A stretch of DNA of 64,000 nucleotides from an uncultured bacterium (GCA_964588285.1 CAZPNX010000010.1:21319-85318), one strand, 5' to 3'. Numbered from the stretch's first letter, positions 341 through 58,885 are shown. The notes: generated by a model from the sequence alone, not told the origin. Made by a program: numbers and translations.

Positions 341-916
341 CTAGTTGTTGAGCTTGAGGATCTGATCCCCGGCCTTGACCGCACCTGGCTCCACCACCCT
401 GGCGAACACCCCCTCCCGCGGCATGACGCAGTCGCCCACCTGCTGGCGGATGGCGCAGCCCTGATGGCACTCCTTGCCGATCTGGGTCACCTCCAGCACG
501 GCGGATCCCCCGACTCTCAAACGGTCGCCAACCTTCAAACGCCCCAGGTCCAAACCTCTGGTCAGCAGGTTCTCGGCGAAGATGCCCGGCGTCAGCTCCA
601 CCCCTCTGCCCCGCATTTTGTCCACGCTCTCCTCGGCCAGCAGGCTTACCTGGCGGTGACGGTCCCCGGCGTGGGCGTCGCCCTCGATCCCGTGTCCGGC
701 CTTCAGGAAGGCGGATTCGACCGGCTTCTTGACCTCGCCCTTCTTTTCGCTCAGGCAGACGGCTACCACCGTGCCCACTAAGTCCCCTCTATCAAGAGGG
801 GATTTAGGGGTGTGTCCGGCTGTCAGTTCCGTTATGGCCTTTTCTATCCTGTGCAACACAGCCTGAATATCACTGCGCACATCTTCGTCAGTGAATCGGA
901 GAAGCCTGATCCTCAC
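341..916 (-). CDS. MOSC domain-containing protein (YiiM-like)
   Basis: The 191 aa product has the MOSC-fold hallmarks: a GD.HAG-like region (GHGIEGDAHAGDRHRQVSLL) and a conserved Cys near the C-terminus. It sits beside moaC and moaA. Confidence 0.75.
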   Translation of the reverse strand: MRIRLLRFTDEDVRSDIQAVLHRIEKAITELTAGHTPKSPLDRGDLVGTVVAVCLSEKKGEVKKPVESAFLKAGHGIEGDAHAGDRHRQVSLLAEESVDKMRGRGVELTPGIFAENLLTRGLDLGRLKVGDRLRVGGSAVLEVTQIGKECHQGCAIRQQVGDCVMPREGVFARVVEPGAVKAGDQILKLNN

Positions 917-937
917 GCTTTCAATGAATTTTCTTTT

Positions 938-1180
938 TTACCCATCTTTCCTCGCAATATCATCGAACCGGTGGGTGTATCCGTCGACTTCGATCGCCAG
1001 CTTCAATCTCGAGCAGTAGAAATCCACGATATACTTGCCTACCGGCTTCTGCCGGTTGAAATCAAAGCCCAGAACCTTCTTTCCCTTAAGATGCTTCCAG
1101 AGAATGATTTCAGATCTGGTGCTATTCCTGCGAAGATTTTGTGCTATGGTTCTCAGATGAGGGCTATAATAGACCTTCAT
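938..1180 (-). CDS. DUF559 endonuclease-domain protein (Vsr-like fold)
   Basis: The C-terminal 80 aa of ORF 938..1504 starts at the internal Met of MKVYYSPHLRTIAQNLRRNSTRSEIILWKHLKGKKVLGFDFNRQKPVGKYIVDFYCSRLKLAIEVDGYTHRF, which is typical of DUF559. The upstream part of that ORF overlaps moaC and is non-coding. Confidence 0.55.
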   Translation of the reverse strand: MKVYYSPHLRTIAQNLRRNSTRSEIILWKHLKGKKVLGFDFNRQKPVGKYIVDFYCSRLKLAIEVDGYTHRFDDIARKDG

Positions 1181-1218
1181 GGAAACACCCCTCGTTCCCC
1201 TCTTCGCCACGAGGGGAC

Positions 1219-1686
1219 CTAGCTCTTCCCTCTCCCCCTGGGAGAGGGACCAAGGGTGAGGGTCCATCTCCCGCTCCGTCCCCCGCTCTTCTCCGTCAGC
1301 CTGATGTCCGAGATCACCATCCCCCGGTCGGCCGCCTTGGCCATGTCGTAGATGGTCAGGCAGGCGGCGGCCACCGCCGTTAGGGCCTCCATCTCGGCCC
1401 CGGTGCGGTCCCGGCAGGACACCCGGCTGAAGACCTCGATCAGGGAACGCGCCCTGTCGATCCGGAAATCGATCTCCACGTTGGTCAATCCTATGGGGTG
1501 GCACAACGGTATTAGAGAGGCAGCCCCCTTGGCCGCCTGGATGCCGGCAATCTTGGCCACCGTCAGCACGTCGCCCTTGGCCATCCGGTTTCCCTCTATC
1601 AGCCTCAGGGTGCCGGGTTTCATCGAGATCCCGCCCCGGGCCGCCGCCATCCTCAGGGTCTTTGGTTTTCCCCCGACGTCCACCAT
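1219..1686 (-). CDS. moaC: cyclic pyranopterin monophosphate synthase MoaC
   Basis: The 155 aa product contains MVDVGGKP..., AKGDVLTVAKIAGIQAAK, LIPLCHP, TGAEMEALTAVAAACLTIYDMAKA and LTEKSGGRSG. These are the canonical MoaC motifs and align with E. coli MoaC. Confidence 0.9.
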   Translation of the reverse strand: MVDVGGKPKTLRMAAARGGISMKPGTLRLIEGNRMAKGDVLTVAKIAGIQAAKGAASLIPLCHPIGLTNVEIDFRIDRARSLIEVFSRVSCRDRTGAEMEALTAVAAACLTIYDMAKAADRGMVISDIRLTEKSGGRSGRWTLTLGPSPRGRGKS

Positions 1687-1730
1687 CCTGGCCCGCCCCC
1701 CGGCGTCCAGGTGCGACAGCTTTTTCCTTC

Positions 1731-1762
1731 GGATTTCGGATTTCGGATTTCGGATTTTCGTT
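1731..1762. repeat. tandem heptamer repeat (GGATTTC)x4-5 in the moaA-moaC intergenic spacer
   Basis: The plus strand reads ggatttc ggatttc ggatttc ggatttt cg..., which is GAAAUCC repeats on the transcribed strand. The repeat lies between the moaA stop (1763) and the moaC start (1686). Confidence 0.8.
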
Positions 1763-2731
1763 TCAGCCTCCTATCTCCGCCATCAGCCGGTTGGACTCGG
1801 GCCGGTCCCCGTTGAAGCGGTGCCCCTCGGGCTTGAGCCGCAGGGCCTCGTAGAAAAGCCTGCGCAGGGTCGGCCCGGCCATGCCGTGCCTCACCGGCTC
1901 CCGCAGGTTGATCTCGGCCTGCCCGGCCAGGCAGGGCCGAAGAAAGCCGTCGGCCGTCAGACGCAGACGATTGCAGCGACGGCAGAAGGGGTGGGATAGC
2001 GGATTGATGAAGCCCACTGTGATCGGGCTGCCTTTAATTTGATATTCCTCGGCCACTCCGTTAGGCGGCAGCGGCGTCAGCTGGAACGCCTTCTCCACCC
2101 GGCTTTTGACTTCGCTCCCGGCTATTGTCCGGGCCGGGGTCCAGTAGTCGTTGCCCAACGGCATCAGCTCGATGAAGCGCAGGTGCAAGCCGTGATCCAG
2201 GGCAAAGCGGACGAAGTCCCCGGCCTCGTCGTCGTTGTAGCCGGCCACCGCCACCACGTTCAGCTTCACCATTTCGTAGCCGTGCTTGACCGCGGCCTCG
2301 ACCGACTCCATGACCTTTCTCCAATCGTCGCTGCCCGACATTTCGCGAAAACGCTCCGGCTTCAGGGTATCCAGGCTGATGTTCACCCGTTTGATGCCGG
2401 CCTGTTTAAGCCTTCCCGCCAGCGGGGCAAACAGGAGGCCGTTGGTGGTCAGGTCCAGCTCCTCCAGCCTGGGGATGTTTCCCAGCTTAACCGCCAGCTT
2501 GGGAAAATCCTTCCTCAACAGAGGCTCTCCCCCGGTCAGCCGTACCTTGCGTATACCCAACTCCACCGCTGCCCGGACGATGGTCTCGATCTCCTCAAAG
2601 CTGAGCATATCATGGTGATCCCGCAGCGCCACCCCCTCCCGGGGCATGCAGTAGTGACAGCGCAGGTTGCAGCGGTCGGTGACCGAGACCCGCAGGTAGG
2701 TTATCTTCCGTCCGTGGGTGTCTATCAGCAT
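1763..2731 (-). CDS. moaA: GTP 3',8-cyclase MoaA (radical SAM)
   Basis: The 322 aa product carries the N-terminal radical-SAM Cys triad (CNLRCHYCMP) and the C-terminal Cys motif (CRRCNRLRLTADGFLRPCL), plus GGEPLLR. Confidence 0.92.
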   Translation of the reverse strand: MLIDTHGRKITYLRVSVTDRCNLRCHYCMPREGVALRDHHDMLSFEEIETIVRAAVELGIRKVRLTGGEPLLRKDFPKLAVKLGNIPRLEELDLTTNGLLFAPLAGRLKQAGIKRVNISLDTLKPERFREMSGSDDWRKVMESVEAAVKHGYEMVKLNVVAVAGYNDDEAGDFVRFALDHGLHLRFIELMPLGNDYWTPARTIAGSEVKSRVEKAFQLTPLPPNGVAEEYQIKGSPITVGFINPLSHPFCRRCNRLRLTADGFLRPCLAGQAEINLREPVRHGMAGPTLRRLFYEALRLKPEGHRFNGDRPESNRLMAEIGG

Positions 2732-2768
2732 ACTATATTAGAATAGTATAGCTCAGGCCCGCGCATTC

Positions 2769-2966
2769 TCATCCGCCGCTTATCAGGTGGATGGCCCAAA
2801 AATCGGCCCCGTCCTCGACCGGAGTGATGTCGTAATGGTCGTGGTGCACGAAGCGGTCGTCGATCTTGACGATGATCATGGGAAAAACGTAGTTTTTCTC
2901 ATTGAGCACATCGCGCACCGTCATCCCCGGACGCCAGGGGTGCTCCTGCCCGTTAACCTTGATCAT
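2769..2966 (-). CDS. MoaD/ThiS-family sulfur-carrier protein
   Basis: The 65 aa product ends in a Gly-Gly C-terminus (HLISGG). It overlaps the upstream E1-like gene by 4 nt and precedes moaA. Confidence 0.7.
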   Translation of the reverse strand: MIKVNGQEHPWRPGMTVRDVLNEKNYVFPMIIVKIDDRFVHHDHYDITPVEDGADFWAIHLISGG

Positions 2967-3850
2967 GATCGTCTCAGCTTCTTGGGCGTTCGGCTAAGAT
3001 ACGGCAAATGGGGCGGCAGTCCTTCGCCAGTCTCCGAGGCTTTCCCTATGGCCGGGTCCGGACCCAGCAGTATCTCCAGGGCCTGGTTGGCCTGCAGGCA
3101 GGCGGCCACGCCCACCCTGGGGGCCATCAGGCCGCGCCCCGGCCCGGCCTCGGTGGACTCGTCCCCGCAGATGTAGAGGTTCCCCAACCGTCGGGTCTTC
3201 AATAGGTTGTTGCCCCCCCAGCCGGCCATGCCGTTGCCCAGGATCAGAGGGGTTTCCGGCAATTGCGACATCACGGCTTCGGCCAGCATTTCCTTCTGGT
3301 CGGCCCGGTCGAAGGCCTCGATGATCACCCGGCACCTGCCGAAAAGGCTTTTAACGTTCTCGGCCACCACCCTCTGGTATCGCGGCTCCACCTTGACGAA
3401 GGGATTGGCCCTCCTGATGTTCTCGGCCAAGGCTCTGACCTTGGGCTGACCGATCTGGCTTACAAAATACTGCTGTCGATTCAAGTTCGACGGCTCCACT
3501 ACGTCGAAGTCGACGATCACCAGCCTGCCGATCCCGGCCCGCGCCAAAGCCATGGCCGCGGTCGAGCCCAAGCCCCCGCAGCCGGCAATGCCGACGCAGG
3601 CCTTCTTGAGCTTGGCGTGGACGCCCGGAGTATGCCGGGCGGCCATTAGGTGCTCCAGTTCCCTCTTTGACGGCTTCGAGCCCTTCTTTATCAGCACCAG
3701 GCGGTCGCCCTCCTCCAGGGTGTGCTCCAGCAGGCAGGGGAACCCGTTGAGCACGCAGAGGTCGGCCTCGGGCCTGCGCTTCTTGACCAGCTCGGCCACC
3801 TTGGTGCCCTCGCGGACGGCGACCTTCCTTTCGTTTATGTATACTTTCAT
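2963..3850 (-). CDS. ThiF/MoeB-family E1-like adenylyltransferase with an N-terminal ThiS/MoaD-like beta-grasp domain
   Basis: The N-terminal ~65 aa (MKVYINERKVAVREG...GDRLVLIKKG) is ubiquitin-like and lacks a terminal GG. It is followed by an E1 Rossmann motif (VGIAGCGGLGSTAAMALARAGIGRLVIVDFDVVEPSNLNRQ). Confidence 0.8.
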   Translation of the reverse strand: MKVYINERKVAVREGTKVAELVKKRRPEADLCVLNGFPCLLEHTLEEGDRLVLIKKGSKPSKRELEHLMAARHTPGVHAKLKKACVGIAGCGGLGSTAAMALARAGIGRLVIVDFDVVEPSNLNRQQYFVSQIGQPKVRALAENIRRANPFVKVEPRYQRVVAENVKSLFGRCRVIIEAFDRADQKEMLAEAVMSQLPETPLILGNGMAGWGGNNLLKTRRLGNLYICGDESTEAGPGRGLMAPRVGVAACLQANQALEILLGPDPAIGKASETGEGLPPHLPYLSRTPKKLRRS

Positions 3851-11102: not shown

Positions 11103-11834
11103 TTAGGAATTATCGGCCCACATCTTCCTTTTCTCGTACCCTATGTAAACATAGCTGGTACGCCCGTCGACCGAGCCTCCCAGCACCACCCGCCCGTAGT
11201 CGCGCTCCTGCTGCCCCAGCCTCAGATGCAGGCCGGCGGTGTGGGGCACCGGCCTGCGACATTCGAAAGCGTATTCCACCGACCAGCGCCTAGAGATATC
11301 GACTGCCAGCCCGGCTGAAAAATTGCCCAGCACCCAGTTGTTCTGTCCCTCCCAGTGGGGCCCGTCTTCCCGGACTTCGCCTCTGGGGACGTTGACTTCC
11401 AGCATTCCGAAGCCCGTCCGAAGATTAAGCCCGAAGCTCTCGCCGAGTTTTAAGCAGTACGAAATTGATGCTTCCGCACAGAACGCGTAGGTGGCCACGT
11501 CGAACATGGTGGTATGGGTGAAGCCCTGCCTCCGGGTGACCGTGTCCTTGAGAAAATGCACGGTGCAGTCTCCGTCCAGTCCCAGCACCAGGGCCAGCGG
11601 TCCCTCCGATTCTGGAAGATACCAGAGTTCGAAGCCGGTCCCCATGCCAAAGAAATCGCCTCTTTTTAAGATGCTCTGGTCCTTGAAGCGGACCGTGGCT
11701 GGGAAGGGCGCCAAGCGGAAGCTCCAGTTGAACCAGTAGCCCGATCGGTTCCTACATTCGTCGCCGACGGCCGCCGCGCACAGAAATGCGGCCAGCAACA
11801 TAACCCTCATCCATTCGTTAATCACGCGGGCCAC
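11103..11834 (-). CDS. hypothetical secreted protein, possibly an outer-membrane beta-barrel
   Basis: The 243 aa product has an N-terminal signal-like segment (MRVMLLAAFLCAAAVG) and alternating aromatic/hydrophobic beta-strand-like pattern. It is inserted between panC and panD. Confidence 0.45.
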   Translation of the reverse strand: MARVINEWMRVMLLAAFLCAAAVGDECRNRSGYWFNWSFRLAPFPATVRFKDQSILKRGDFFGMGTGFELWYLPESEGPLALVLGLDGDCTVHFLKDTVTRRQGFTHTTMFDVATYAFCAEASISYCLKLGESFGLNLRTGFGMLEVNVPRGEVREDGPHWEGQNNWVLGNFSAGLAVDISRRWSVEYAFECRRPVPHTAGLHLRLGQQERDYGRVVLGGSVDGRTSYVYIGYEKRKMWADNS

Positions 11835-13740: not shown

Positions 13741-14868
13741 TCAGCGCGGCTCCGATCCCCAGGCCACCCCCAGCGGGAGGAAGGCGGTGTTTACGCCGAC
13801 CACCAGCTCATGCCCCCAGGAGGCGATGATGCCCGGGCTGAATCTCCCCAGCCTCAGCACGCCGGGATAGAGGTTGAGCCTGGCTCGGTTGTGCGGCAGG
13901 CCGCTGACCATCAGCGAGGCCAGCAGGGAGTTGTCGCGGTCGTAGAACAGCCCGGCGCTCCAGCTCAGCCTGGCGGCATAGGCCTCCCCCGGGCCCTCCT
14001 GCACCGCCGCCTCCAGGTTCTCCACCATCAGCCCGGCGGCGGCCGACCAGGCCCGGCCGTCGGGAAGCCGCCGGCTCAAGCCGGCCATGCCGTGCAGCCC
14101 GTAGTGGGCCATCAGGCTCCAGGACCGGTCGGCCCTGAGGGGATAGCGCATGACGTAGAACTGGCCCATGTTCTCCAGGTCCCCGGTGCGGGCGTTGTAG
14201 CAGGGCTGCTGGGACCACTCGGCCAGGCCCAATCTTTGGGAGAAAAAACGGCAGACCCGGTCCGAGGAGAACAGCAGGATGCCGGCCGGGTTGAAGACGT
14301 ATATGTCGGCGATCGGGTCCAAGGTCGGGCCCTCGGTCTCGCCGTTCTCCACCACCTCGGTGGTCAGGTGATAGGCGGCCATGGTGGCCAGCGACCATAG
14401 CCGGGGGTGCGGAAAACCGTGGAACTGGAACCATTCGGCCGTGGCCCGGTAGTGCATCCCCGCTCCGATCCCGTGCAGGAAATAGTTAGGGACGAACTGC
14501 TCTCGGTTCCGGTCCATCGGGTCGGCCGGGAAGAGCTCGTTGGCCAGGAACTTGTCCCAGCCCACCGTCTCGACTGTCCGCAGGGGATTCCCGATGCTGG
14601 CCCAGGAGTTCCGCCACCACCGGCGGTAGGGCGCCTCGAAGATCCTCCGGTCGCCGGCCCGGCTGGGAACCTGCCAGATACCATAGCCTCCGTTGATGAC
14701 AACCGTGCCCGGATTGTAGACAGCCTGGGTTCCGTAGTCCAGACCCTTGTAAAAGAACAGCAACGAGGTGTCGGGCCGGCCGCTGGCTAGCGCTGCCATC
14801 GGGAAAACCAGCAGGGCCGGCAACAAATACTTTGACCCATGGCCTAGCCTAACCGCAGCGGTCTTCAT
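13741..14868 (-). CDS. hypothetical secreted protein (375 aa), last gene of the Fd-AOR-SagB operon
   Basis: The N-terminal signal peptide is LLPALLVFPMAALASG. Its start overlaps the SagB-type gene stop by 4 nt (ATGA at 14865-14868). I recognised no family. Confidence 0.55.
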   Translation of the reverse strand: MKTAAVRLGHGSKYLLPALLVFPMAALASGRPDTSLLFFYKGLDYGTQAVYNPGTVVINGGYGIWQVPSRAGDRRIFEAPYRRWWRNSWASIGNPLRTVETVGWDKFLANELFPADPMDRNREQFVPNYFLHGIGAGMHYRATAEWFQFHGFPHPRLWSLATMAAYHLTTEVVENGETEGPTLDPIADIYVFNPAGILLFSSDRVCRFFSQRLGLAEWSQQPCYNARTGDLENMGQFYVMRYPLRADRSWSLMAHYGLHGMAGLSRRLPDGRAWSAAAGLMVENLEAAVQEGPGEAYAARLSWSAGLFYDRDNSLLASLMVSGLPHNRARLNLYPGVLRLGRFSPGIIASWGHELVVGVNTAFLPLGVAWGSEPR

Positions 14869-15557
14869 TTAACAGGATGGCCAAGCGGGATGAGGTAGAG
14901 CGGAACCTCCTCAGGCGGCAGTGATAAAACCGTCTTAACCGCGGCCTCATCGAAGGCGCCCACCATCACCGAGCCCAATCCCAAGGCGGCGGCTTGCAGG
15001 GACACGTTTTGTCCGATGTGCCCGGCCTCCATGTCGGTGTAGCGCACGGAACGGTCGCCGTAGCGGGGCCTGATCCTTCCATAATCGGCGGCCAGGCCGA
15101 TGACGGCCGGGGCCATGGCGACGCAGTCCTGCCCCAGGGCCGCCTTCGACAATCCCTGCCTCAAGTCTGCCGATATCTTTTTACGCAGCAGATGGCCCGC
15201 ACTAGAATACTGGTAGAGGCCAGGGTCCAACCCCTCCACCCGACCGGCCACCAGGTATAGTGATATCGGGTAGCAGGCCCCGGCCGAGGGAGCGGCCCGC
15301 AGGCCCCTCTTGGGCTCGGTGATCCCCTGGGCCGCCCACAGAAGCTGGGAGACATGGGCCAGGGTCAAAGGCTTATCCGAAAAATTTCTTATCGACCTTC
15401 TGCCGGCGATGGCCTTCTCTATAGAGATCGAGCCATCGGTCGTCGGCTTCGGCAGTTTTGCTGTTTTGATAGCCACCATATCCTCCGTTTTCCCAATAAC
15501 CGCCCCAGCAGCCGCCAACATCAGCCAGGTTGATAACAACGTCGACCAACGAATCAT
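14865..15557 (-). CDS. SagB/ThcOx-type dehydrogenase (nitroreductase superfamily) with an N-terminal membrane anchor or signal
   Basis: SagB-type motifs are present: RRSIRNF, HVSQLLWAAQG, RAAPSAGACYP and LYQYSSAGHLL. I placed the start at the internal ATG (CAT 15555-15557) of ORF 14865..15980, which overlaps the AOR stop (ATGA). The N-terminal stretch MIRWSTLLSTWLMLAAAGAVIG is hydrophobic. Confidence 0.8.
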   Translation of the reverse strand: MIRWSTLLSTWLMLAAAGAVIGKTEDMVAIKTAKLPKPTTDGSISIEKAIAGRRSIRNFSDKPLTLAHVSQLLWAAQGITEPKRGLRAAPSAGACYPISLYLVAGRVEGLDPGLYQYSSAGHLLRKKISADLRQGLSKAALGQDCVAMAPAVIGLAADYGRIRPRYGDRSVRYTDMEAGHIGQNVSLQAAALGLGSVMVGAFDEAAVKTVLSLPPEEVPLYLIPLGHPVK

Positions 15558-17317
15558 GGTTTCAGTCCCAGTTCCCTGCGGTAGGCCTTTGCTGCTTCGG
15601 CCATGTAGCCGCGGTCGATGGCCCCGCCCGGAGCCGGCGTCTGGTAGATGCGATCGGGAAGGGCCTCGGGCCTGGGATCGAAGCCCTCCCGCACCTTGAA
15701 GGCGTACTTGTTTCTCAGGACCTTCCTGCCCAACTCCTTGAGCTGGTCGGCCCCGAGCTCGTAGCCGCATGTTTTCAGGGCCCGGGCGACGGTCTCGGCC
15801 GGATAAAGCCCCCGGGAGAAGAAGCAGAGAACCAGGCTGGAGAGGACCTGCCGCCACTCCTCCTCGGCCGCCAGGGACGAGGCCAGTTTCTCCGGCGGCA
15901 CCGGCTCCTTGCCCAGGTTCTTCTGATCCACGCTGTAGCCGGCATTGTCCAGATGGCTGTGCCTGGCGCCGAAAAGACATCCGAGATGTGCCCCGGGTCC
16001 GGTGTGGTAGCCCGGCATCTCGTTCCCCCCGAAGGCCAGGGCGAACTCTTTCCCCCCGTACCTCTCCGAGGCGGCCGCCACCCCGCGGCCCAGAATTTTG
16101 TAGAACTCGTTGCTCCGGGATACTATGCGGCCGATGGCCTGCCGATAGGCGGCGACGTCGCCCCAGGCCATTTTGACGCCGTCGGTCTCCGATTCGCCTA
16201 TCAGCTTTTTCTCGAAGGCCTCGGTGGCCCAGGCCAGGGCCACTCCGGCGCTCATCGAGTCCAGCCCCACCTTCTCCACCGTGTCCAGCAGCTTGAGCAG
16301 ACCGGCGGGATCGAAAACACCCAGCATGGTTCCCAGGGAATAGGTGGGCTCGTAGTCATAGGAGATCATCGAGGTCTTGTAGAAAAAGGCCTCCCTCTCG
16401 TACGGCTCCCGCAGGGCGGCGATGTGGATGCAGCCCACCGGACAATGGGTGCAGGCCAGGCGCCGGCCCAAATATCCCTCGGCCATTTTCTCCCCGGATA
16501 TGGCATCGGCCCTGTCGTCGCTGGCCGAAGCCAGGTTCCTTAAAGGTAGAGCGCCGATCTTATTAAGAGGTCGCAGGTTCTCCGGGGTTCCCAGGTCGTG
16601 GTACTTTTTCATGGCCGGTGACTCCACCGCCGCCCGGTGGATCTCCTCGTAGAGTTCCCGGTACTCCTTGAGGTCGGCCACCGGCAGGGCCCGCTGGCCC
16701 GAGACCACCACCGCCTTCAGCCTCTTGGCGCCGAAGACCGCCCCCAGTCCCAGGCGTCCGAAGTGACGGTAGGACTCGGTGGTCACCGCCGAGTAGGTGA
16801 CCAGGTTCTCCCCGGCCCGCCCGATGCGCATGATGCTGCGCAGGCCTGGCCCTGGCTCGTTTTCCCTGATGACCCGTCCGACAGTGAAAGAGCTGCCCAT
16901 GCCCCACAGGGCTCTGGCGTCGCGGTAGTACACCTTGTCGCCATGGACCGCCAGGTATCCGGGCTTATCGTTGCCCCCCAAAATGACCAGGGCCCCATAG
17001 CCCGCCATCCTCAAGGCCACCGAGCTCCGCCCTCCGGCATGGCTCTCCCCCAGGTTGCCGGTATGCGGCGACTTGAACATGGCCACCGTCTTCGAGGCCA
17101 GCGGGAAGAGGCCGCACAGCGGCCCGGTGGCCAGGATGATCGGGTTTTGCGGCGACAGGGGGTCGGTGCCCTGGGGACAGTTCTCCTCTAAGAGCTTGAT
17201 GGCCGTGCCGGCCCCGCCTAGATATTTGTCGAAAAGATCCTCCCTCCTCTCCACCCAGTGCTTGCGCTTGGAGAGGTCGACATAGAGTACTTTGGCCAGG
17301 GTGTCCTTATCCAGCAT
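15554..17317 (-). CDS. aldehyde:ferredoxin oxidoreductase family tungsto-/molybdopterin enzyme
   Basis: The 587 aa product has an AOR N-terminal domain (LYVDLSKRKHWVE...LGGAGTAIKLL), pterin-binding segments and Cys residues for the [4Fe-4S] cluster (ACTHCPVGCIHI). Confidence 0.88.
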   Translation of the reverse strand: MLDKDTLAKVLYVDLSKRKHWVERREDLFDKYLGGAGTAIKLLEENCPQGTDPLSPQNPIILATGPLCGLFPLASKTVAMFKSPHTGNLGESHAGGRSSVALRMAGYGALVILGGNDKPGYLAVHGDKVYYRDARALWGMGSSFTVGRVIRENEPGPGLRSIMRIGRAGENLVTYSAVTTESYRHFGRLGLGAVFGAKRLKAVVVSGQRALPVADLKEYRELYEEIHRAAVESPAMKKYHDLGTPENLRPLNKIGALPLRNLASASDDRADAISGEKMAEGYLGRRLACTHCPVGCIHIAALREPYEREAFFYKTSMISYDYEPTYSLGTMLGVFDPAGLLKLLDTVEKVGLDSMSAGVALAWATEAFEKKLIGESETDGVKMAWGDVAAYRQAIGRIVSRSNEFYKILGRGVAAASERYGGKEFALAFGGNEMPGYHTGPGAHLGCLFGARHSHLDNAGYSVDQKNLGKEPVPPEKLASSLAAEEEWRQVLSSLVLCFFSRGLYPAETVARALKTCGYELGADQLKELGRKVLRNKYAFKVREGFDPRPEALPDRIYQTPAPGGAIDRGYMAEAAKAYRRELGLKP

Positions 17318-17318
17318 C

Positions 17319-17714
17319 TCAGTCGCCCTCCATGGACAGCACCTCGTGGGGGCAGTGCTTGGCGCAGGAGCCGCAATGGACGCAGATCAATGGCTTCTGG
17401 GCCTCCTCGTCCCAGAATACCGCCCCCATGGGGCAGGCGTCCCGGCAGTGCCCGCAGCCGGTACATTTCTCCGGATTGAGCAGCACTCCGCCTCCCCGGC
17501 GCAGGGCCAGGGCGTCGTTGGGGCAGACCGCGGCACAGGGCGGATCGGCGCAGGCCCGGCAGACCACGGCCACGAAGCCGCGCTCCATGCCCCCGGCCGA
17601 GCGGACCGCTATACGGTTGGCGCCCAGCCCGGGCCGGCCGTGATGGCGTGAGCAGGCGAACATGCACACCTGACAGCCCACGCATCGGTCGGTGTCGACG
17701 ACGTTTAAACGCAT
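17319..17714 (-). CDS. 4Fe-4S dicluster (multi-cluster) ferredoxin
   Basis: The 131 aa product has several CxxCxxC(x)nCP motifs: CVGCQVCMFAC, CRACADPPCAAVCP, CTGCGHCRDACP and CVHCGSCAKHCP. Its stop is 1 nt before the AOR start. Confidence 0.82.
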   Translation of the reverse strand: MRLNVVDTDRCVGCQVCMFACSRHHGRPGLGANRIAVRSAGGMERGFVAVVCRACADPPCAAVCPNDALALRRGGGVLLNPEKCTGCGHCRDACPMGAVFWDEEAQKPLICVHCGSCAKHCPHEVLSMEGD

Positions 17715-17819: not shown

Positions 17820-18920
17820 TCACTTGGCCGGGGCCGGCTCGCAGATCTCCCCCTCCCTTTTGAGCTCGGCCGCCCGCTTCATTTCGGCCCGGGTCATGAA
17901 ACCCACCGCAATGAAGATGAACACCAGGGCCGCCCAGTCCTCGGCTTTGGGATATTTGCCCCCAAAAAGGAGGGCAAAGAGCAGGGTGGCCAAGGTGCCG
18001 GCCACCAGGGAGGTCAGCCGGTTGGACAGGCCGGCAAAGGTGGCCGTCCGCCCCTTGAACATGAAGATGAACACCGAAAAGAAGGCCACCACCCCGAATA
18101 TACCTCCGGCCAACACCTCCATCGGCCAATATCCCGTGGCCGACAGATAGCCGCGGTGAACGGCCGCCAGTATTTTGCCGGCGTTGGACGGCAACAGCAT
18201 CAGTATGGCCAGAACGGCCAGCAGGCTCACCGAAGCCGCCACTTGTTCCACGGCAAAGAACGCCTTGTTGTCCTGCTTGCAGCCCTTGCCACGGGTGTTC
18301 TTGTAGTAATTCATAATGTAGATGCGGATGAAGTAGGCCAGCAGGTAGCTTCCCAGCACCAGCATGGCCAGGGTATTTTTTACGAGGTCGCTTCCTCCGG
18401 CCTCCTTGACGAAGAACAACTGCAGGCCCACGGCGGCGATGGCGAACAGAACCGCCACCTCCTCCTCCCAGTAGACCTTCTTGTGAAGAATGCCCTGCTT
18501 GATTTGAATGGCGTCGATGATGCGGGAAAAGATGATCACCGAGCCCCGCATGATGAGCATGGCCACCATTACCGAGCGCAGCAGCACATAGAGCAGGGTG
18601 GTGGTGGGAATGACCACCGCGGTGCAGATGCCGGAGGGAATGATGTAGAGGTACTCGGCCGGAAAGCGCAGCACGCCCCAGGTTACCATTTTGGTCGACT
18701 CCATCCTGGCCCAACGGAATACCGAGACCACCGCCAGACACACCAGGCTGCCCCCCAGGGTGCTGTAGACCAGGTATTCCCAGTTGTCCACCCCCGGCAA
18801 GCCGCGGGATGCCGGACCGGTGTAGTACTTGGTGGCCACGCTGTAGATGACGTAGGTAAAAAGGTAGGCCAGACACAGTTCCACTAAGCGCCCGGTGCTG
18901 CCCTCTTTGCTCTTGAACAT
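17820..18920 (-). CDS. hypothetical polytopic membrane protein (about 10 TM)
   Basis: The 366 aa product has a hydropathy pattern of about 10 helices. I recognised no family motif. Confidence 0.55.
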   Translation of the reverse strand: MFKSKEGSTGRLVELCLAYLFTYVIYSVATKYYTGPASRGLPGVDNWEYLVYSTLGGSLVCLAVVSVFRWARMESTKMVTWGVLRFPAEYLYIIPSGICTAVVIPTTTLLYVLLRSVMVAMLIMRGSVIIFSRIIDAIQIKQGILHKKVYWEEEVAVLFAIAAVGLQLFFVKEAGGSDLVKNTLAMLVLGSYLLAYFIRIYIMNYYKNTRGKGCKQDNKAFFAVEQVAASVSLLAVLAILMLLPSNAGKILAAVHRGYLSATGYWPMEVLAGGIFGVVAFFSVFIFMFKGRTATFAGLSNRLTSLVAGTLATLLFALLFGGKYPKAEDWAALVFIFIAVGFMTRAEMKRAAELKREGEICEPAPAK

Positions 18921-19007: not shown

Positions 19008-19718
19008 TTAGACCTTGACCTGCCCCAGCCGGGCGAAAATTTCGTCCAGGGCCGGACCCAGCTTGGCCGGGTCGTCGGTCTTCTCCGGCATGTTGTCGAA
19101 TACGGCGAACGGCACCTTGTGCCCTTTGATCTCGATAATGCCCTGGTCCTTGCCGCCGGAAAGCTTCTCCCAGTCGTTGATCTTGTAATAGTATTCCATC
19201 TTGTCGTCCGGCAGGGAATGGTAGAGAACGCTGTGCTCCTCTCCCTTGCGGGCCCGCTTGCGGTTCTTGCGCACCGACTCCTCGTAGGTCACCTTGATGT
19301 AGACGATCCGGGCCAGCTTGAGGATGTCGTCCGACAGGAAGTTGAAGGCGTCGCGGAACCCGTTCTCCCCGCCCCGGGCGAATTCTATCAGCGAGGTGTG
19401 CTTCTTGAGGAAATCGGGCTCGGCCAGCCTCTTGGCGAAGGCGTTGTTGATCTTCTGGATGCAGACGTGCCAGGCGAACTCGTCCTTGAAGTAGTAGTCG
19501 GGTTTGGAGTGCAGCCGCTCCCTGCCGTTGGCGCTGAGGAAGTCGTCCTCCTCGAACCACTCCCAGATATAGAGAAAGTCGTCGAACTCGGCCAGCTCGG
19601 CCACATTGAAGCGCTCCATCCGCTCCACCAGCGGAGTCTTCTTCAGGTAGTCGATGACCTCGCTCTTGCCGGCGGCCGGCCGGGCCACCAGGATGATGAC
19701 CGGGTGGTGCTTGTCCAT
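19008..19718 (-). CDS. P-loop NTPase / kinase-like protein
   Basis: A Walker A motif (VARPAAGKSE) is present, with 6-phosphofructo-2-kinase/zeta-toxin-like spacing (FARGGENGFRDAFNFL). Confidence 0.5.
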   Translation of the reverse strand: MDKHHPVIILVARPAAGKSEVIDYLKKTPLVERMERFNVAELAEFDDFLYIWEWFEEDDFLSANGRERLHSKPDYYFKDEFAWHVCIQKINNAFAKRLAEPDFLKKHTSLIEFARGGENGFRDAFNFLSDDILKLARIVYIKVTYEESVRKNRKRARKGEEHSVLYHSLPDDKMEYYYKINDWEKLSGGKDQGIIEIKGHKVPFAVFDNMPEKTDDPAKLGPALDEIFARLGQVKV

Positions 19719-19743: not shown

Positions 19744-19790
19744 AGTCATTGCGAGCCCTGCCCCTTGACTGGCGAGCGAAGCAATCTCAA
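19744..19790. repeat. copy A of a local ~45 nt repeat (GTCATTGCGAG-N15-GGYGARCGAAGCAATC)
   Basis: The sequence agtcattgcgagccctgccccttgactggcgagcgaagcaatc lies between the P-loop gene and the GIY-YIG gene. Confidence 0.6.
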
Positions 19791-20071
19791 CCTGATTCGC
19801 TCAAGTCTTTGTACTCGGGATTCATGCTCTTAATCAGCCTCTCCTTGGCCGCCCGCGAGCCCGCCTTGATCTGCTTCTCCCTGGCTATGGCTTTGACGAT
19901 ACTTACGAATGTCTCGTAATAGACCAGTTTGTTCACATTGTATCTTGAAGTGAAACCGGATACCGCCTTGGACTTGTGTTCCGCCACCCGCCTTTTCAGG
20001 TTGTTGGTCACGCCGGTGTATAGCACCGTGTTCCGTTTGTTCGATAGGATGTACACGTAATACCGCTTCAT
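19787..20071 (-). CDS. GIY-YIG nuclease-family small protein
   Basis: MKRYYVYILSNKRNTVLYTGVTNNLKRRVAEH is the GIY-YIG motif (YVYIL...LYTG). I set the start at the internal ATG (CAT 20069-20071). Confidence 0.8.
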   Translation of the reverse strand: MKRYYVYILSNKRNTVLYTGVTNNLKRRVAEHKSKAVSGFTSRYNVNKLVYYETFVSIVKAIAREKQIKAGSRAAKERLIKSMNPEYKDLSESG

Positions 20072-20077
20072 GCTACC

Positions 20078-20250
20078 CGTCATTGCGGGAATTGCGCCTG
20101 GTCTTACAGACGATGCGATCGCTTGACTTTTGCCAGGCGCCAACGGTCATTGCGAGACCGACTTCCCGCCTGGTGAACGAAGCAATCGTTGATCCGTTGT
20201 CAGGCACCGTCCGGGATTGCTCCGCCCGTCCTATGAATGCCCTGCTCGCA
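20078..20250. repeat. cluster of three further copies of the GTCATTGCGAG repeat (direct copies C and B, inverted copy D) upstream of the GIY-YIG gene
   Basis: Copy C (20078-20127) is ccgtcattgcgggaattgcgcc...gatcgcttgac. Copy B (20145-20195) is ggtcattgcgagaccgacttcccgcctggtgaacgaagcaatcg. Copy D (20233-20248) is ctgctcgcaatgacgg, the reverse complement of the core. Confidence 0.6.
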
Positions 20251-20266
20251 ATGACGGCCGGTGCGC

Positions 20267-21133
20267 CTACCCCACCGCCTTCAGCTGCAGGGAGAAGTCC
20301 ATGGCCGGGGCCGAGTGGGTGATGGCTCCCACCGAGATGAAGTCCACCCCGCATTCGGCGATCTGCCGCACGTTATCAATGCTGACGTTGCCCGAGGCCT
20401 CCAATCGGAGTTTCCCCTGGTCCCGGGCCGGATGGGAGAAGACTAAGCGGCAGGCCTCGGCCATCCGCTCCGGCTTCATGTTGTCCAGCATGATGATGTC
20501 CGGCTCCTCGGCCAGGGCTTCCTCCAGCTGGGACAGGTTCTGCACCTCCACCTCGATTTTCACCCGGCCGTGGTCCGCCTCTTTCACCTTGCGGATGGCG
20601 TTGGCCACCCCGCCGGCCGCCTCGATGTGGTTGTCCTTGATGAGCACCATGTCCCAAAGACCCATGCGGTGGTTCTGCCCGCCGCCGCAGGCCACCGCGT
20701 ATTTCTCCAGCGCCCTCAGCCCGGGAGTCGTCTTACGGGTATCGAGTATTTTAGCCCTGGTTCCCCTGACCGCCTCCACGAAACTGTTGGTGAGGGTGGC
20801 GATGCCCGAGAGGTGCTGCAGGAAGTTGAGAGCCGTCCGCTCGGCCGCCAGGATGGAGCGTGTTTTCCCCTGCACTGTCAGAGCCACCTGGCCCAGCTCA
20901 ACCTTCTCCCCGTCCTTGATCTGAACCTCGGCCTTGAGTTCCGGGTCGACCGCCAGGAAGGCCTCCTTGCAGACATCGATCCCGGCCAGCACCCCGTCCT
21001 GCTTGGCCATCACCAGGGCCAGGCCGCAGGCCGTTTCGCCCACCGTGAACTGGCTTGTGATGTCCCCCTTGCCGATGTCCTCTTTAAGAGCTTGCCTGAT
21101 AAGAGGTCTGATTTTTTTGCAATTATATTTCAT
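20267..21133 (-). CDS. nadC: nicotinate-nucleotide pyrophosphorylase (carboxylating)
   Basis: The 288 aa product shows QAPRTase signatures: LDTRKTTPGLR, KDNHI and IMLDNM. The first ~12 codons fall inside the AT-rich segment. Confidence 0.9.
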   Translation of the reverse strand: MKYNCKKIRPLIRQALKEDIGKGDITSQFTVGETACGLALVMAKQDGVLAGIDVCKEAFLAVDPELKAEVQIKDGEKVELGQVALTVQGKTRSILAAERTALNFLQHLSGIATLTNSFVEAVRGTRAKILDTRKTTPGLRALEKYAVACGGGQNHRMGLWDMVLIKDNHIEAAGGVANAIRKVKEADHGRVKIEVEVQNLSQLEEALAEEPDIIMLDNMKPERMAEACRLVFSHPARDQGKLRLEASGNVSIDNVRQIAECGVDFISVGAITHSAPAMDFSLQLKAVG

Positions 21134-21149
21134 TTATGCTTATATCTTT

Positions 21150-21955
21150 TTAAAAGAAACCAACGTTAATTGATAACATTAAATACTTAATATATCCATT
21201 GATATATCTTCCCTTCATGCTTAAGCCAGCATGATAATAGCAAAAAGCATTTCTTTTCATTTTTGGCTTGACACTATCCGACAGCCCGAAACCAGTCAGA
21301 ACACCAAATTCCATTCCTCTGGTCTTTTCGATTTCTTTACTAATGATAATATTTGAATATAGTTTATTGAACGGTGTGCCAGTATACATGATACCAACAG
21401 AATAATCTTGATAAGAACGGTCGTTCTTATACAACAAAGCCAAATCTTCCGATCTTAAAATCACGATATCTTCATTAAACCATTTATAACCAATAAAGGG
21501 AGTAAAATCTGACAATGTGCGATTCTTATAATATGAGAACAACAACGATACGCTCGTACTCCCATAACTCGGATTTTTCTGATATCTAAGCCCCTGTCCA
21601 AACGTTCCTATAAAATCATGCGTTATCAGCAAACCTATCGGTTTATACTTAACTCCATAAATGATATTTAACATACTTGGAAAACCAGTGCCCGCTGTAT
21701 CTATTTGCATCCCCGCTGGTAAAGATAATGGATAATTATAACCTTTGTAATATCCTATACCTATTGAGGCGTCCATGTAAATACTTAGATTGCCGTAATG
21801 TGTACCCAGTCTTCCATATTCCACATTAGTAGAGTCTTCACAAAATAACTGGGATGATAATATGATTAGAGAAAATTGAAAGAAAATAGTAAATATTAAT
21901 GCCTTATAATATTGACTACTTTCTTGTGGTTTTAATGAATGCAAACGTGAACAAA

Positions 21956-21959
<4 letters not shown>
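21150..21959 (-). CDS. hypothetical Tyr/Asn-rich secreted protein, likely an outer-membrane beta-barrel, encoded by an AT-rich island
   Basis: There is an N-terminal signal-like region ([22 protein letters not shown]) and a C-terminal aromatic end (...SINVGFF). A GTG start at 21957-21959 has a GGAGG 8 nt upstream and overlaps the uvrB stop (GTGA). Sampled lines are about 28-45% G+C against about 67% in the flanks. Confidence 0.55.
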
Positions 21960-24049
<2,090 letters not shown>

Positions 24050-30361: not shown

Positions 30362-31537
30362 TTACCTCTTTCCGTCCGCGCCCCTGAACGACCGGACCGC
30401 CTCCTCCTGAATTATGCGGAGCGGCACGCCCAGCTTCAGGGCAGCCTTGCGGCACTCGTCATACTCGGGCACGAACCTCCGCCCGCCCGTGCCCAGCCGG
30501 GCCATCTTACCGGAGATGAGTCCATACTTCGTTCTGACCTTCACGATCTCCCTCGGCAGTATGCGGCGCTCAACCACCCGGCGCCTAACCCCCAGGGTGG
30601 TGGTCTCCGACAGTATCATGTCGATAGCGGCCTTCTCGATCTCCTGCGGGACCAAGGCTGAGAATATAGTACCTGGCCTGCTCTTCTTCATGATGACTGG
30701 CGTCAGCCACACGTCAAACGCGCCTTTGTCAAAAAGCCGGTCCATCAGGTGCTCGTAGACCTGGGGGTTGAGGTCGTCCAGGTTCGTCTCCAACAGCACC
30801 GGGTCCTCAGGCGAGGTCGAGGCCCCCTCTGATTCGCCGATGAAAACGCGCACCATGTTGGGTATCTTTGTTCCCCTGGTCCCGGCGCCGTGGCCCACGG
30901 CCGCGACCGACATCATGGGCATCGGGCCGAAGCCGGACGAGAGGGTGGAGAGGATGGCGGCCCCGGTCGGCGTCACCAGCTCCCCCTCCAAATCGTCCTG
31001 GTAGATCCTGGCCCCATTGAGCAGCAGGGCCGTGGCCGGTGCCGGCACCGGCAGCCAGCCGTGGGCGCATTTAACCCTACCCCGCCCCACGTTCAATGGG
31101 GAGCAATAGACGCGCTCAATGCCGAGGTCCTCCAGCGCCAGGCAGGTGCCCACGATGTCGACCATGGCGTCCACCGCTCCCACCTCGTGGAAGTGCACCT
31201 TGTCCACTGTGGTCCGGTGTACCCCGGCCTCGGCCCTGGCCAGGGCGCCGAAGATGAGGTAGGCGCTGCCCGTCACTTTATTCGAAAGTTTGGCCCGGTC
31301 GATGAGTTTGAAGACGTCCGCCAGGCGGCGCTCCGGCTGCGGGCCCTGTACGACCTCGAGGTGCCGTGCCGCTATTCCTTGTTTGCGGACATTCGTCAGC
31401 TTCAGCGCCCAGCCCTTGACCGGCAGTTTGCGCAGCCGTTTTTCGATGGCCCGCACGTCCGCCCCGGCGTCCAGGAGCGAGGCCAGGATCATGTTCCCGG
31501 CGGCACCGGTCGGACAGTCGAAGTAGGCGGTCCTCAC
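30362..31537 (-). CDS. larC: nickel-pincer cofactor biosynthesis protein LarC (nickel insertion)
   Basis: The 391 aa product begins MRTAYFDCPTGAAGNMILASLLDAG, the LarC N-terminus, and carries His-rich HFHEVGAVDAMVDIVG. Confidence 0.85.
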   Translation of the reverse strand: MRTAYFDCPTGAAGNMILASLLDAGADVRAIEKRLRKLPVKGWALKLTNVRKQGIAARHLEVVQGPQPERRLADVFKLIDRAKLSNKVTGSAYLIFGALARAEAGVHRTTVDKVHFHEVGAVDAMVDIVGTCLALEDLGIERVYCSPLNVGRGRVKCAHGWLPVPAPATALLLNGARIYQDDLEGELVTPTGAAILSTLSSGFGPMPMMSVAAVGHGAGTRGTKIPNMVRVFIGESEGASTSPEDPVLLETNLDDLNPQVYEHLMDRLFDKGAFDVWLTPVIMKKSRPGTIFSALVPQEIEKAAIDMILSETTTLGVRRRVVERRILPREIVKVRTKYGLISGKMARLGTGGRRFVPEYDECRKAALKLGVPLRIIQEEAVRSFRGADGKR

Positions 31538-32286
31538 GGTCCGTCCTTCCCGACGATCATCGACGCCAGGTAGCCGGCGCCGAAGCCGTTGTCGATGTTG
31601 ACCACCGCCACCCCGGGGGAGCAGGAGTTGAGCATGGCCAGCAGGGCCGCCGCCCCGCCGAAGCTGGCGCCGTATCCAACGCTGGTGGGGACGGCGATCA
31701 CCGGGCAGGCCACCAGTCCGCTGACCACGCTGGGCAGCGCCCCCTCCATTCCGGCGGCCACGACGATGGCCGACGCTCCCTGAAGCATTTCGATTTTGTC
31801 GAGCAGCCGGTGGATGCCGGCCACGCCCACGTCCCAGAGGCGCTCCACCCTACACCCCAATATCTCGGCCGTCAGGGCGGCCTCCTCGGCCACCGGTATG
31901 TCCGAGGTGCCGGCGGTGACCGCCGCCAGGTACCTCCCGGTCCTTTTCCGGGCCACCGCTTTGCCTGTTATGATCCTGGCTTGTTCGTTGAACCTGGCGC
32001 CGGGGCACTTCGCCTTGACTGCCCTCCAGTGGGCTGCCTCCGCCCGGGTGGCCATCACCGGCCCATGCTTCGTCATGGCCTTGAATATGCCTGCGACCTG
32101 GGCCGGCGTCTTGCCCTGGCAGAAGATGACCTCCGGCGCCCCCCGACGCAGATGGCGGTGGCTGTCGATGTTGGCGAATCCAAGTTCGGTGTAGGGCAGA
32201 TGCCTCAGCATCTCAACGGCCCTGGCAACCGGCAAACTGCCGTCCCTGACGCCCTTCAATATTCTCTCGACGGTCTTGTTGTCCAT
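31534..32286 (-). CDS. larB: nickel-pincer cofactor biosynthesis protein LarB (PurE-like carboxylase/hydrolase)
   Basis: The 250 aa product has a PurE-like fold (AAVTAGTSDIPVAEEAALTAE, VAAGMEGALPSVV). It overlaps larC by 4 nt. Confidence 0.85.
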   Translation of the reverse strand: MDNKTVERILKGVRDGSLPVARAVEMLRHLPYTELGFANIDSHRHLRRGAPEVIFCQGKTPAQVAGIFKAMTKHGPVMATRAEAAHWRAVKAKCPGARFNEQARIITGKAVARKRTGRYLAAVTAGTSDIPVAEEAALTAEILGCRVERLWDVGVAGIHRLLDKIEMLQGASAIVVAAGMEGALPSVVSGLVACPVIAVPTSVGYGASFGGAAALLAMLNSCSPGVAVVNIDNGFGAGYLASMIVGKDGP

Positions 32287-32323
32287 TTATCCTTCCGTCC
32301 CCGCCGCCCACCCGCTTGACGCC

Positions 32324-33133
32324 TCAGGCATCGAAGCAGCCCATCTGGTATCCGGCCAGGTCGAGCGTCGCGAACCTGTAGCCGGCGGCCCTGATCCGTT
32401 CCGCTATGAGCCTCCGCCTCTCGACCGCCCTTTCCAGGTCCTCAGGCTGAAGCTCGATCCTGGCGACGTCCCCGTGATGTCGCACCCGGAAAGATTTGAA
32501 ACCCATCCGCGCCAGCGACTTTTCCGCCTTCCTGACTCTCTCCAAAATCGCTTCCGTGATCATCGTTCCGTAGGGCACCCGCGTGGCCAGGCAGGCCTCG
32601 GCCGGCCTGGCCCAGTTGGGCAGGCCCCGCCGCCTCAGCAGCACCCTGATCTCAGCCTTCGTCAGGCCCGCCTCGGCCAGCGGACTCCTTACCCCCATCT
32701 TCTTTGCGGCTCTGTGTCCTGGACGCATGGTTTTCAGGTCATCGGCGTTGGTCCCGTCAAGAATTGTTCCGATGCCCCGTTTTCGAACGGCCTTCCTGAT
32801 ATTTGAGAAAATATGGCGCTTGCAGTGGTAGCAGCGGTCGGCTGGATTGGCGACAAATGATTTGTTCCGCAGTTCGCCCGTCTCGATCACCAGATGTTCG
32901 AATCCCGTCCTTCGGGCCGAAGCTTTGGCATTTTTCAGATCGTCAGGGCAATGAATGGGCGATGCCGCTGTGACCGCCAGAAATCCCTCCCCTAGAACTT
33001 CATGGCAAACGACGGCCAACAGCGTGCTGTCGGCGCCTCCGGAGAAGGCGACGGCCGCCCGGCCGTATCCGCGGATAATGGATTTCAGCTTTTTCACCTT
33101 TTCCGCCAGAGTGCCGGCGGCATCAACGGCCAT
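32324..33133 (-). CDS. larE: ATP-dependent sacrificial sulfur transferase LarE (PP-loop)
   Basis: The PP-loop is SGGADS. The catalytic Cys is in a CLATRVPYG-like motif, and CYHCK is also present. Confidence 0.85.
   Translation of the reverse strand: MAVDAAGTLAEKVKKLKSIIRGYGRAAVAFSGGADSTLLAVVCHEVLGEGFLAVTAASPIHCPDDLKNAKASARRTGFEHLVIETGELRNKSFVANPADRCYHCKRHIFSNIRKAVRKRGIGTILDGTNADDLKTMRPGHRAAKKMGVRSPLAEAGLTKAEIRVLLRRRGLPNWARPAEACLATRVPYGTMITEAILERVRKAEKSLARMGFKSFRVRHHGDVARIELQPEDLERAVERRRLIAERIRAAGYRFATLDLAGYQMGCFDA

Positions 33134-35644: not shown

Positions 35645-38698
<3,054 letters not shown>

Positions 38699-58780: not shown

Positions 58781-58885
<105 letters not shown>

Follow-up and report, generated by a model that had tools for sequence, protein, structure and literature searches.

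The four-gene locus and its junctions

The subject of this analysis is a group of four consecutive genes in a 64,000-nucleotide (nt) stretch of DNA from an uncultured bacterium (GCA_964588285.1, CAZPNX010000010.1:21319-85318), which as a whole is referred to here as the window. All four lie on the minus strand. The first encodes a WorS-type ferredoxin (Fd; 17319..17714; 131 amino acids (aa), matching Fer4 families) and the second a protein of the aldehyde:ferredoxin oxidoreductase family (AOR, or WorL; 15554..17317; 587 aa, with AFOR_N and AFOR_C domains). They are followed by a gene for a SagB-type nitroreductase (NTR; 14865..15557; 230 aa, matching TIGR03605 and Pfam Nitroreductase) and one for a 375-aa protein with a signal peptide and no family match (P375; 13741..14868). 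An initial annotation had identified these four genes and read AOR, the SagB-type protein and the exported protein as a fixed module. Its gene identities stand: all family assignments score above their hidden Markov model (HMM) cut-offs, and P375 is without a family.

The genes follow one another very closely, and the junctions, of which one has a 1-nt spacer and two overlap at an ATGA, could be read from the sequence just as the initial annotation had described them. The Fd stop codon (TGA, 17319-17321) is separated by a single base (17318) from the AOR start codon (ATG, 17315-17317). The ATGA at 15554-15557 contains both the AOR stop (...GLKP-TGA) and the NTR start ATG, and the ATGA at 14865-14868 combines in the same way the NTR stop (...PVK-TGA) with the start ATG of P375. 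Such spacing is common in this genome. Nearly every gene called up to ~60 kb is on the minus strand, and 19 of the 54 same-strand junctions in the window have a spacing of 10 nt or less, with an exact 4-nt overlap at 7 of the 54. One of these 4-nt overlaps joins panD to an NTP-transferase gene, two genes of unrelated functions, and it is kept in relatives too. A run of three tight junctions is expected by chance at about 0.35 cubed, or 4%, and the three successive tight junctions found here are only mildly beyond chance. Within a compact single-strand genome, stop/start overlaps are therefore weak evidence of a functional module. A promoter and terminator scan of the region from 10.5 to 21.5 kb returned 14 terminator-like sites where 9.5 were expected, and no convincing site separates the four genes from one another or precedes panB.

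The ferredoxin and AOR

Fd contains 16 cysteines arranged in four CxxCxxCxxxC-type [4Fe-4S] motifs (residues 11/14/17/21, 52/55/60/64, 84/87/90/94 and 111/114/117/121), and in an HMM scan it matched Fer4_11 and other Fer4 families. Its relatives in the PDB are AorA (8c0z_C), 9mqx_E and the Fe-S subunit of WOR5 (6x6u_B), with E-values of ~1e-11 to 1e-9. The N-terminus, MRLNVVDTDRC, has no RR motif and no hydrophobic stretch, and neither a twin-arginine (Tat) nor a Sec signal was found in it. AOR, too, was found to be free of export signals.

The AOR assignment is clear, with Pfam scores of 216.1 bits for AFOR_N (gathering cut-off 29.8) and 216.1 bits for AFOR_C (gathering cut-off 27). Among solved structures the AOR of Pyrococcus furiosus (PfAOR, 1aor) is the best match (224 bits), followed by 9mqx_D, FOR and AaAOR, with WOR5 more distant. 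The active-site and cluster residues known from PfAOR are intact. The cluster ligands C289/C292/C296/C498 align with C288, C291, C295 and C494 of PfAOR and do not vary among 24 orthologues. In the second shell, T244, E323, Y437 and H455 align with T243, E313, Y427 and H448 and are invariant in the clade. This second-shell set of Thr, Glu, Tyr and His is held to be necessary for aldehyde oxidation and has also been reported for the GOR clade (PMC12096430), which the window AOR resembles in having all four residues. Two features set PfAOR apart: it is a Class I enzyme without a ferredoxin subunit, and its second pterin-binding motif reads DSAGLC, where the window AOR has SSLVLC. Orthologues with 61-66% identity occur in Bacillota, Atribacterota, Thermoguttaceae, Deferribacter, Synergistota, Desulfobacterales and methanogens.

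Gene neighbourhoods outside the lineage

Which of the four genes belong together was assessed by surveying their neighbourhoods from the sides of AOR, P375 and NTR. For the AOR side, a metagenome scan with the alignment of the 24 orthologues yielded 80 loci with 58-65% identity. A four-cluster ferredoxin (55-70% identity) lies directly upstream of AOR in ~75 of these 80 loci, at a median gap of 1.5 nt, and most of the others are incomplete loci. Clustering of the open reading frames (ORFs) around AOR in the metagenome loci found nothing else that is conserved. Of the metagenome loci, 65 extend 700 nt or more downstream of AOR, and in none of these does a SagB-type gene follow; one locus carries an NTR 3 kb upstream. 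In the cultured Deferribacter autotrophicus the gene order is MoeA-...-Fd-AOR, and the next gene, of the major facilitator superfamily (MFS), is on the opposite strand.

For the P375 side, the best 80 of 225 genome loci were searched by tblastn with the window proteins, and all flanking ORFs were clustered. Fd, AOR and NTR were found beside P375 only in locus L001 (88% identity) and locus L002 (bacterium UBP2_UBA4780, 66%); none of the three is near P375 in the other 78 of these 80 loci. The clustering revealed no conserved neighbour of P375 at all. Additionally, four NTR homologues (47-56% identity) from Omnitrophota, Thermoproteota, Tritonobacter and one further lineage lie among unrelated genes and have neither AOR nor YcaO neighbours.

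Only Fd and AOR thus form a conserved pair, and NTR and P375 are lineage-specific neighbours. From this contrast between a conserved pairing and lineage-specific neighbours it follows that Fd-AOR is a cytoplasmic Class II enzyme (WorS plus WorL) of the tungsten-containing oxidoreductase (WOR) family, and therefore a member of a class that has already been described. Class II WORs were defined by Putumbaka et al. (2026) as WorL plus WorS, with four clusters in WorS and ferredoxin as carrier (PMC13328260). They account for 16% of the WOR family and occur in 40 of its 92 clades; only PfASOR/WOR5 and CbGOR have been characterised, and 38 Class II clades lack any characterised representative (PMC13328260). 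A nitroreductase partner for Class II WORs is not mentioned there (PMC13328260). Fd-AOR joins this class as one further uncharacterised member. Its clade is strongly conserved, with more than 60% identity across Bacillota, Atribacterota, Deferribacterota, Synergistota, methanogens and others, and may prove more useful as a subject than the module originally proposed.

Comparison with the known systems is consistent with this placement. Like the Class II WORs WOR5/ASOR of P. furiosus (with PF1479) and GOR of Caldicellulosiruptor bescii, the pair is a two-gene unit of a catalytic and a four-[4Fe-4S] subunit, cytoplasmic, without a flavin subunit and with ferredoxin as presumed acceptor. The window AOR is nevertheless only distantly similar to WOR5 itself (152 bits over the N-terminal 420 residues). 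The Class III WOR AorABC of Aromatoleum aromaticum (8c0z) likewise combines a four-cluster subunit, AorA, with a catalytic subunit, AorB, and has a third redox gene in the operon. Here, however, the third gene encodes a protein of the flavin mononucleotide (FMN) nitroreductase fold with a signal-like N-terminus, not the AorC/WorN subunit that binds flavin and nicotinamide adenine dinucleotides (FAD/NAD), and its conservation beside the pair is confined to one lineage. Neither a WorN-type FAD/NAD oxidoreductase nor WorABC is present next to Fd-AOR, where the neighbours are NTR, P375 and two genes that we call TM366 and PL236.

The initial annotation had drawn an analogy with ferredoxin-paired AORs, citing YdhV/YdhY of Escherichia coli. 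The broader part of this analogy holds, but the likeness to YdhV/YdhY (Class V WOR, clade 41) is only loose and amounts to an AOR-family protein with a ferredoxin-like partner. Equivalence is ruled out by the NCBIfam equivalog cut-offs, with 148 against 868 bits for PRK09849 and 66 against 213 bits for PRK09898. Moreover, the window AOR and Fd differ from Class V enzymes of the YdhV type in lacking an export signal, and YdhV is ~700 aa long.

The SagB-type nitroreductase

NTR scores 113 bits against Pfam Nitroreductase and 122.4 bits against TIGR03605 (SagB), well above the cut-off of 78.4, which upholds its earlier assignment to the SagB type. It has more than 6500 homologues, most of them 200-250 aa long with a hydrophobic N-terminus, and its own residues 1 to ~22 resemble a signal peptide. 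The initial annotation was right to note the hydrophobic N-terminus of NTR and the signal peptide of P375.

Whether NTR overlaps AOR at all depends on its start codon. The NCBI record starts the protein at a GTG (V28) behind a GGAGG (P0121, 203 aa, 100% identical), which drops both the signal-like N-terminus and the overlap with AOR. Translation of the six lineage loci from the upstream start, which either overlaps the AOR stop or directly adjoins it, gives in each case a basic n-region and then a hydrophobic stretch of 12-19 residues. The upstream hydrophobic segment is therefore kept as protein in six of six loci, whereas the internal GTG start and its Shine-Dalgarno sequence are not conserved in the lineage, which makes the V28 start the less likely one. 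Because the signal-like N-terminus is conserved in all six loci, the upstream start is the better supported and the coupling of AOR and NTR, as first proposed, is real. Several NTR relatives are likewise annotated short (201-222 aa).

The same architecture extends beyond the lineage. Signal-like N-termini stand before a conserved 'LPxP' mature start in 25 diverse members of the family, and several of these N-termini are lipobox-like; a consistent twin-arginine motif was not found among the 25. Judging from these features, NTR is a member of a very large standalone SagB-subgroup family of FMN proteins with signal-peptide-like N-termini. Its closest solved relatives are the structural-genomics entries 3eo7, 8cqs, 3hoi (BF3017) and 3hj9 (131 to 71 bits), which are standalone SagB-subgroup proteins and share a mature N-terminal 'KLPKP' start. 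BmdC-Ox, CyaGox and McbC are far more distant. The NTR subfamily of the window carries an invariant R172-Y173, which by alignment ranges to McbC and by alignment to BmdC lies near the expected position of the catalytic Lys-Tyr pair; 3hoi, 3hj9 and 8cqs lack this R-Y motif. In McbC the pair is K201/Y202 (PMC6395948).

With the azoline dehydrogenases of thiazole/oxazole-modified microcin (TOMM) and non-ribosomal peptide synthetase (NRPS) pathways (McbC, SagB, ThcOx/CyaGox, BmdC-Ox), NTR has in common the nitroreductase-fold FMN domain, the match to TIGR03605 and a Tyr at about the catalytic position. Unlike them it is short and standalone, has a putative signal peptide and apparently an Arg in place of the Lys, and no cyclodehydratase partner was found for it. 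A 187-aa metagenomic enzyme of the SagB subgroup ('SagB1') has been reported to activate or reduce metronidazole (PMC10055417). Since this short SagB-subgroup enzyme is reported to reduce metronidazole, a generic flavin-dependent reductase activity is plausible, by analogy, for NTR.

The protein P375

P375 has no family match in Pfam or NCBIfam, and a sequence search of Pfam and the PDB was empty up to an E-value of 10. At least 218 homologues exist, none of them named, and their alignment is well conserved. The structure prediction that the initial annotation had suggested gave a confident AlphaFold2 model, with an N-terminal helical domain that carries invariant His, Glu and Asp residues and a C-terminal beta domain; Foldseek found no significant analogue of this model in the PDB. 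P375 is regarded as an uncharacterised envelope-type protein, predicted to be exported and to have an outer-membrane-like beta domain.

The 225 P375 loci come from a scan of one genome per species, and the best 80 of them belong to WOR-3, TA06, Edwardsbacteria, Fibrobacterota, Ignavibacteriota, Calditrichota, Krumholzibacteriota, Zixibacteria, Bacteroidota and Gemmatimonadota. P375 is an orphan family spread over phyla of the Fibrobacterota-Chlorobi-Bacteroidota (FCB) type, without an analogue among solved structures. It deserves a study of its own and may be a more useful outcome than the module claimed at first.

Conservation within the lineage

In the close relatives of the window genome the locus is part of a larger syntenic block, nadC-PL236-TM366-Fd-AOR-NTR-(P375)-panB-panC-(orf243)-panD-NTP_transferase, which continues to argS. 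As the whole block is syntenic in the lineage, the adjacency of AOR and NTR is inherited and not specific to these two genes. Within the block the proteins diverge at different rates, NTR (~50% identity across the lineage) much faster than AOR and Fd (75-80%).

P375 is variable. It overlaps NTR through an ATGA only in the window and in L001; the two genes are parted by 64 nt or more in L002 and by 166 nt or more in L081; and P375 is absent from L167 and L169, in which NTR is directly followed by panB. The P375 frames of L002 (4014-4078) and L081 (8609-8775) also show a peculiarity, in that a signal-like N-terminus is present and no ATG, GTG or TTG lies between the preceding stop codon and the conserved region. 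A start codon of a non-canonical type, or a fault in the assembly, could account for these startless frames. A second predicted envelope protein gene behaves similarly: orf243 (11103-11834, between panC and panD) encodes 243 aa with a signal peptide and no family, and is present in L001 and L081 and absent in L167. From the presence and absence of orf243 and P375 it follows that genes for envelope proteins come and go within these arrays.

Functional interpretation

The analysis shows what the genes are, how they adjoin, how widely they are conserved and that the active-site residues are present. The probable reading of the locus, in our view, is one functional unit, the Class II WOR Fd-AOR, accompanied by two passengers, NTR and P375. 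By analogy with the characterised relatives, which suggest the metal, the substrate and the electron acceptor, the cytoplasmic WorL would oxidise an aldehyde, or a related substrate, at a W/Mo-bis-pterin site. The electrons would then pass from the [4Fe-4S] cluster of WorL itself to the four clusters of WorS and on to soluble ferredoxin. NTR and P375 would be exported envelope proteins, co-transcribed with Fd-AOR and functionally independent of it. Their shared orientation and translational coupling would be explained by a compact genome and an inherited gene order, and not by work shared with AOR.

Some of our observations weigh against NTR being a mere passenger. It is found downstream of every AOR of at least 75% identity that was inspected, namely those of the window, L001, L002, L081, L167, L169 and L174. 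Of six AOR/NTR junctions (the window, L001, L002, L081, L167 and L169), five are 4-nt overlaps and one is a 1-nt gap, despite NTR being only ~50% identical among these loci; a co-translation unit under selection would be expected to show such a pattern. Additionally, the export of NTR is predicted from sequence features only. A protein with non-covalent FMN that is exported without a Tat motif would be odd, and NTR may instead be held by a membrane anchor that leaves it facing the cytoplasm.

These points would fit a three-component enzyme specific to the lineage. NTR would be tethered to the membrane by an N-terminal anchor that is not cleaved, its FMN domain facing the cytoplasm, and would serve as the electron exit of WorS-WorL, for instance to quinone. 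Its role would be that of the FAD subunit WorN/AorC in Class III WORs, taken over at the membrane by a protein of another fold, and WORs of three subunits that include a flavin subunit do exist (PMC13328260). The absence of the twin-arginine motif, which would explain the export of a folded flavoprotein, also speaks for such an arrangement. Nonetheless, the association of AOR and NTR has a single evolutionary origin, within a block of wholly conserved gene order, and it does not recur in any of the 65 informative AOR loci elsewhere. Elsewhere the members of the NTR family stand alone and their neighbours vary, the N-termini of the family resemble cleavable signal peptides (with short h-regions, and lipobox-like in some members), and NTR evolves much faster than its supposed partners. 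A lineage-specific functional link between AOR and NTR is thus possible but unlikely, and to the three-component enzyme as such we give a small chance. That a Class II WOR in this lineage recruited a signal-anchored SagB-subgroup FMN protein as its third subunit, bound to the membrane, seems slightly less likely still. Its consequences would be considerable: if NTR were a membrane-bound electron exit, a new WOR subunit composition would be defined, a WorL-WorS-flavoprotein complex that passes aldehyde-derived electrons to the membrane (e.g. to quinone) and falls outside the five described WOR classes. It would also be the first physiological role for the huge standalone SagB-like family.

The passenger reading fares better still against the pathway first proposed for the locus, in which all four genes form a fixed membrane- or periplasm-facing redox system acting on an aldehyde/acid or a heterocycle. 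Three consecutive tight junctions in the window genome and L001, together with signal-like N-termini on both NTR and P375, are what commends this proposal, and we regard it as very improbable. P375 is missing from two lineage loci (L167 and L169), is detached from NTR in two others (L002 and L081) and lies apart from AOR and NTR in 78 further genome loci; as a part of any such module it is ruled out by the neighbourhood surveys. The fixed association of AOR, SagB-type protein and exported protein is rejected because the four genes are not co-conserved outside the lineage. A single pathway facing the membrane or periplasm does not hold up either, as AOR and Fd lack export signals and NTR and P375 appear to have them, which places the two pairs in different predicted compartments. 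The locus is therefore not a new four-part redox system: the observations made on the sequence were confirmed, and their interpretation was supported in part. The least credible alternative, with hardly any probability left, is that the SagB-type gene marks an azoline-oxidising pathway for a TOMM or another peptide that is ribosomally synthesised and modified after translation (RiPP), which the TIGR03605 match and the position of Y173 would suggest, but which is rejected on the lack of a YcaO/cyclodehydratase gene among the scanned neighbours in the window (the Pfam scan extending to 33 kb) and beside the four NTR homologues, on the invariant Arg (R172) that apparently stands in place of the Lys of the catalytic pair, and on the export-type N-terminus of NTR.

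Other features of the window

As stated in the initial annotation, the window does carry genes for the pterin cofactor, at 341-3850. Pfam matches identify MOSC (341-916), MoaC (1219-1686), MoaA (1763-2731) and a fusion of a ThiS-like domain with ThiF (2963-3850), all on the minus strand. They are at least 10 kb from AOR, beyond purM, argS, an amylase gene and the pan genes, and do not belong to the same operon. Their presence gives only indirect support for the predicted W (or Mo) bis-pyranopterin cofactor and aldehyde:ferredoxin oxidoreductase activity of AOR. A ThiS-like protein, 'WorX', has been described beside some WORs (PMC13328260).

Upstream of Fd, the syntenic block contains two genes whose products are more conserved than AOR, with 84-95% identity across the lineage. 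TM366 (17820-18920), just upstream of Fd, encodes a multi-pass membrane protein, and PL236 (19008-19718), upstream of TM366, a P-loop-like protein of 236 aa; neither has a Pfam or PDB match at E-values up to 10. With no more than 3 nt between them in L167, the two are probably a pair. Between PL236 and nadC lies a small GIY-YIG nuclease gene (19787-20143). L169 has a PDDEXK_3 gene in the same slot and L081 has no gene there, so that the insertion site seems to be variable and possibly mobile.

A few further observations concern the rest of the window. An ORF of 271 aa at 21150-21965 has no Pfam match, overlaps the start of uvrB by 10 nt and has a GC content at third codon positions of 0.31; it lies in a 49% GC patch (20001-22000) of a window with ~60% GC. 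A foreign origin of the DNA or an erroneous ORF call may explain this. ARAGORN called a tRNA-Ser(tga) at 38423-38515 on the plus strand, inside a minus-strand ORF of 1017 aa that is SecA-like by its N-terminus, and this call is probably a false positive. At 30362-33133, genes for LarC (Ni_insertion), LarB (AIR carboxylase-like) and a LarE-like PP-loop protein stand in a row, which are genes of the nickel-pincer nucleotide cofactor. Finally, a bacterial small signal recognition particle (SRP) RNA is encoded on the minus strand at 58782-58881 (52 bits).

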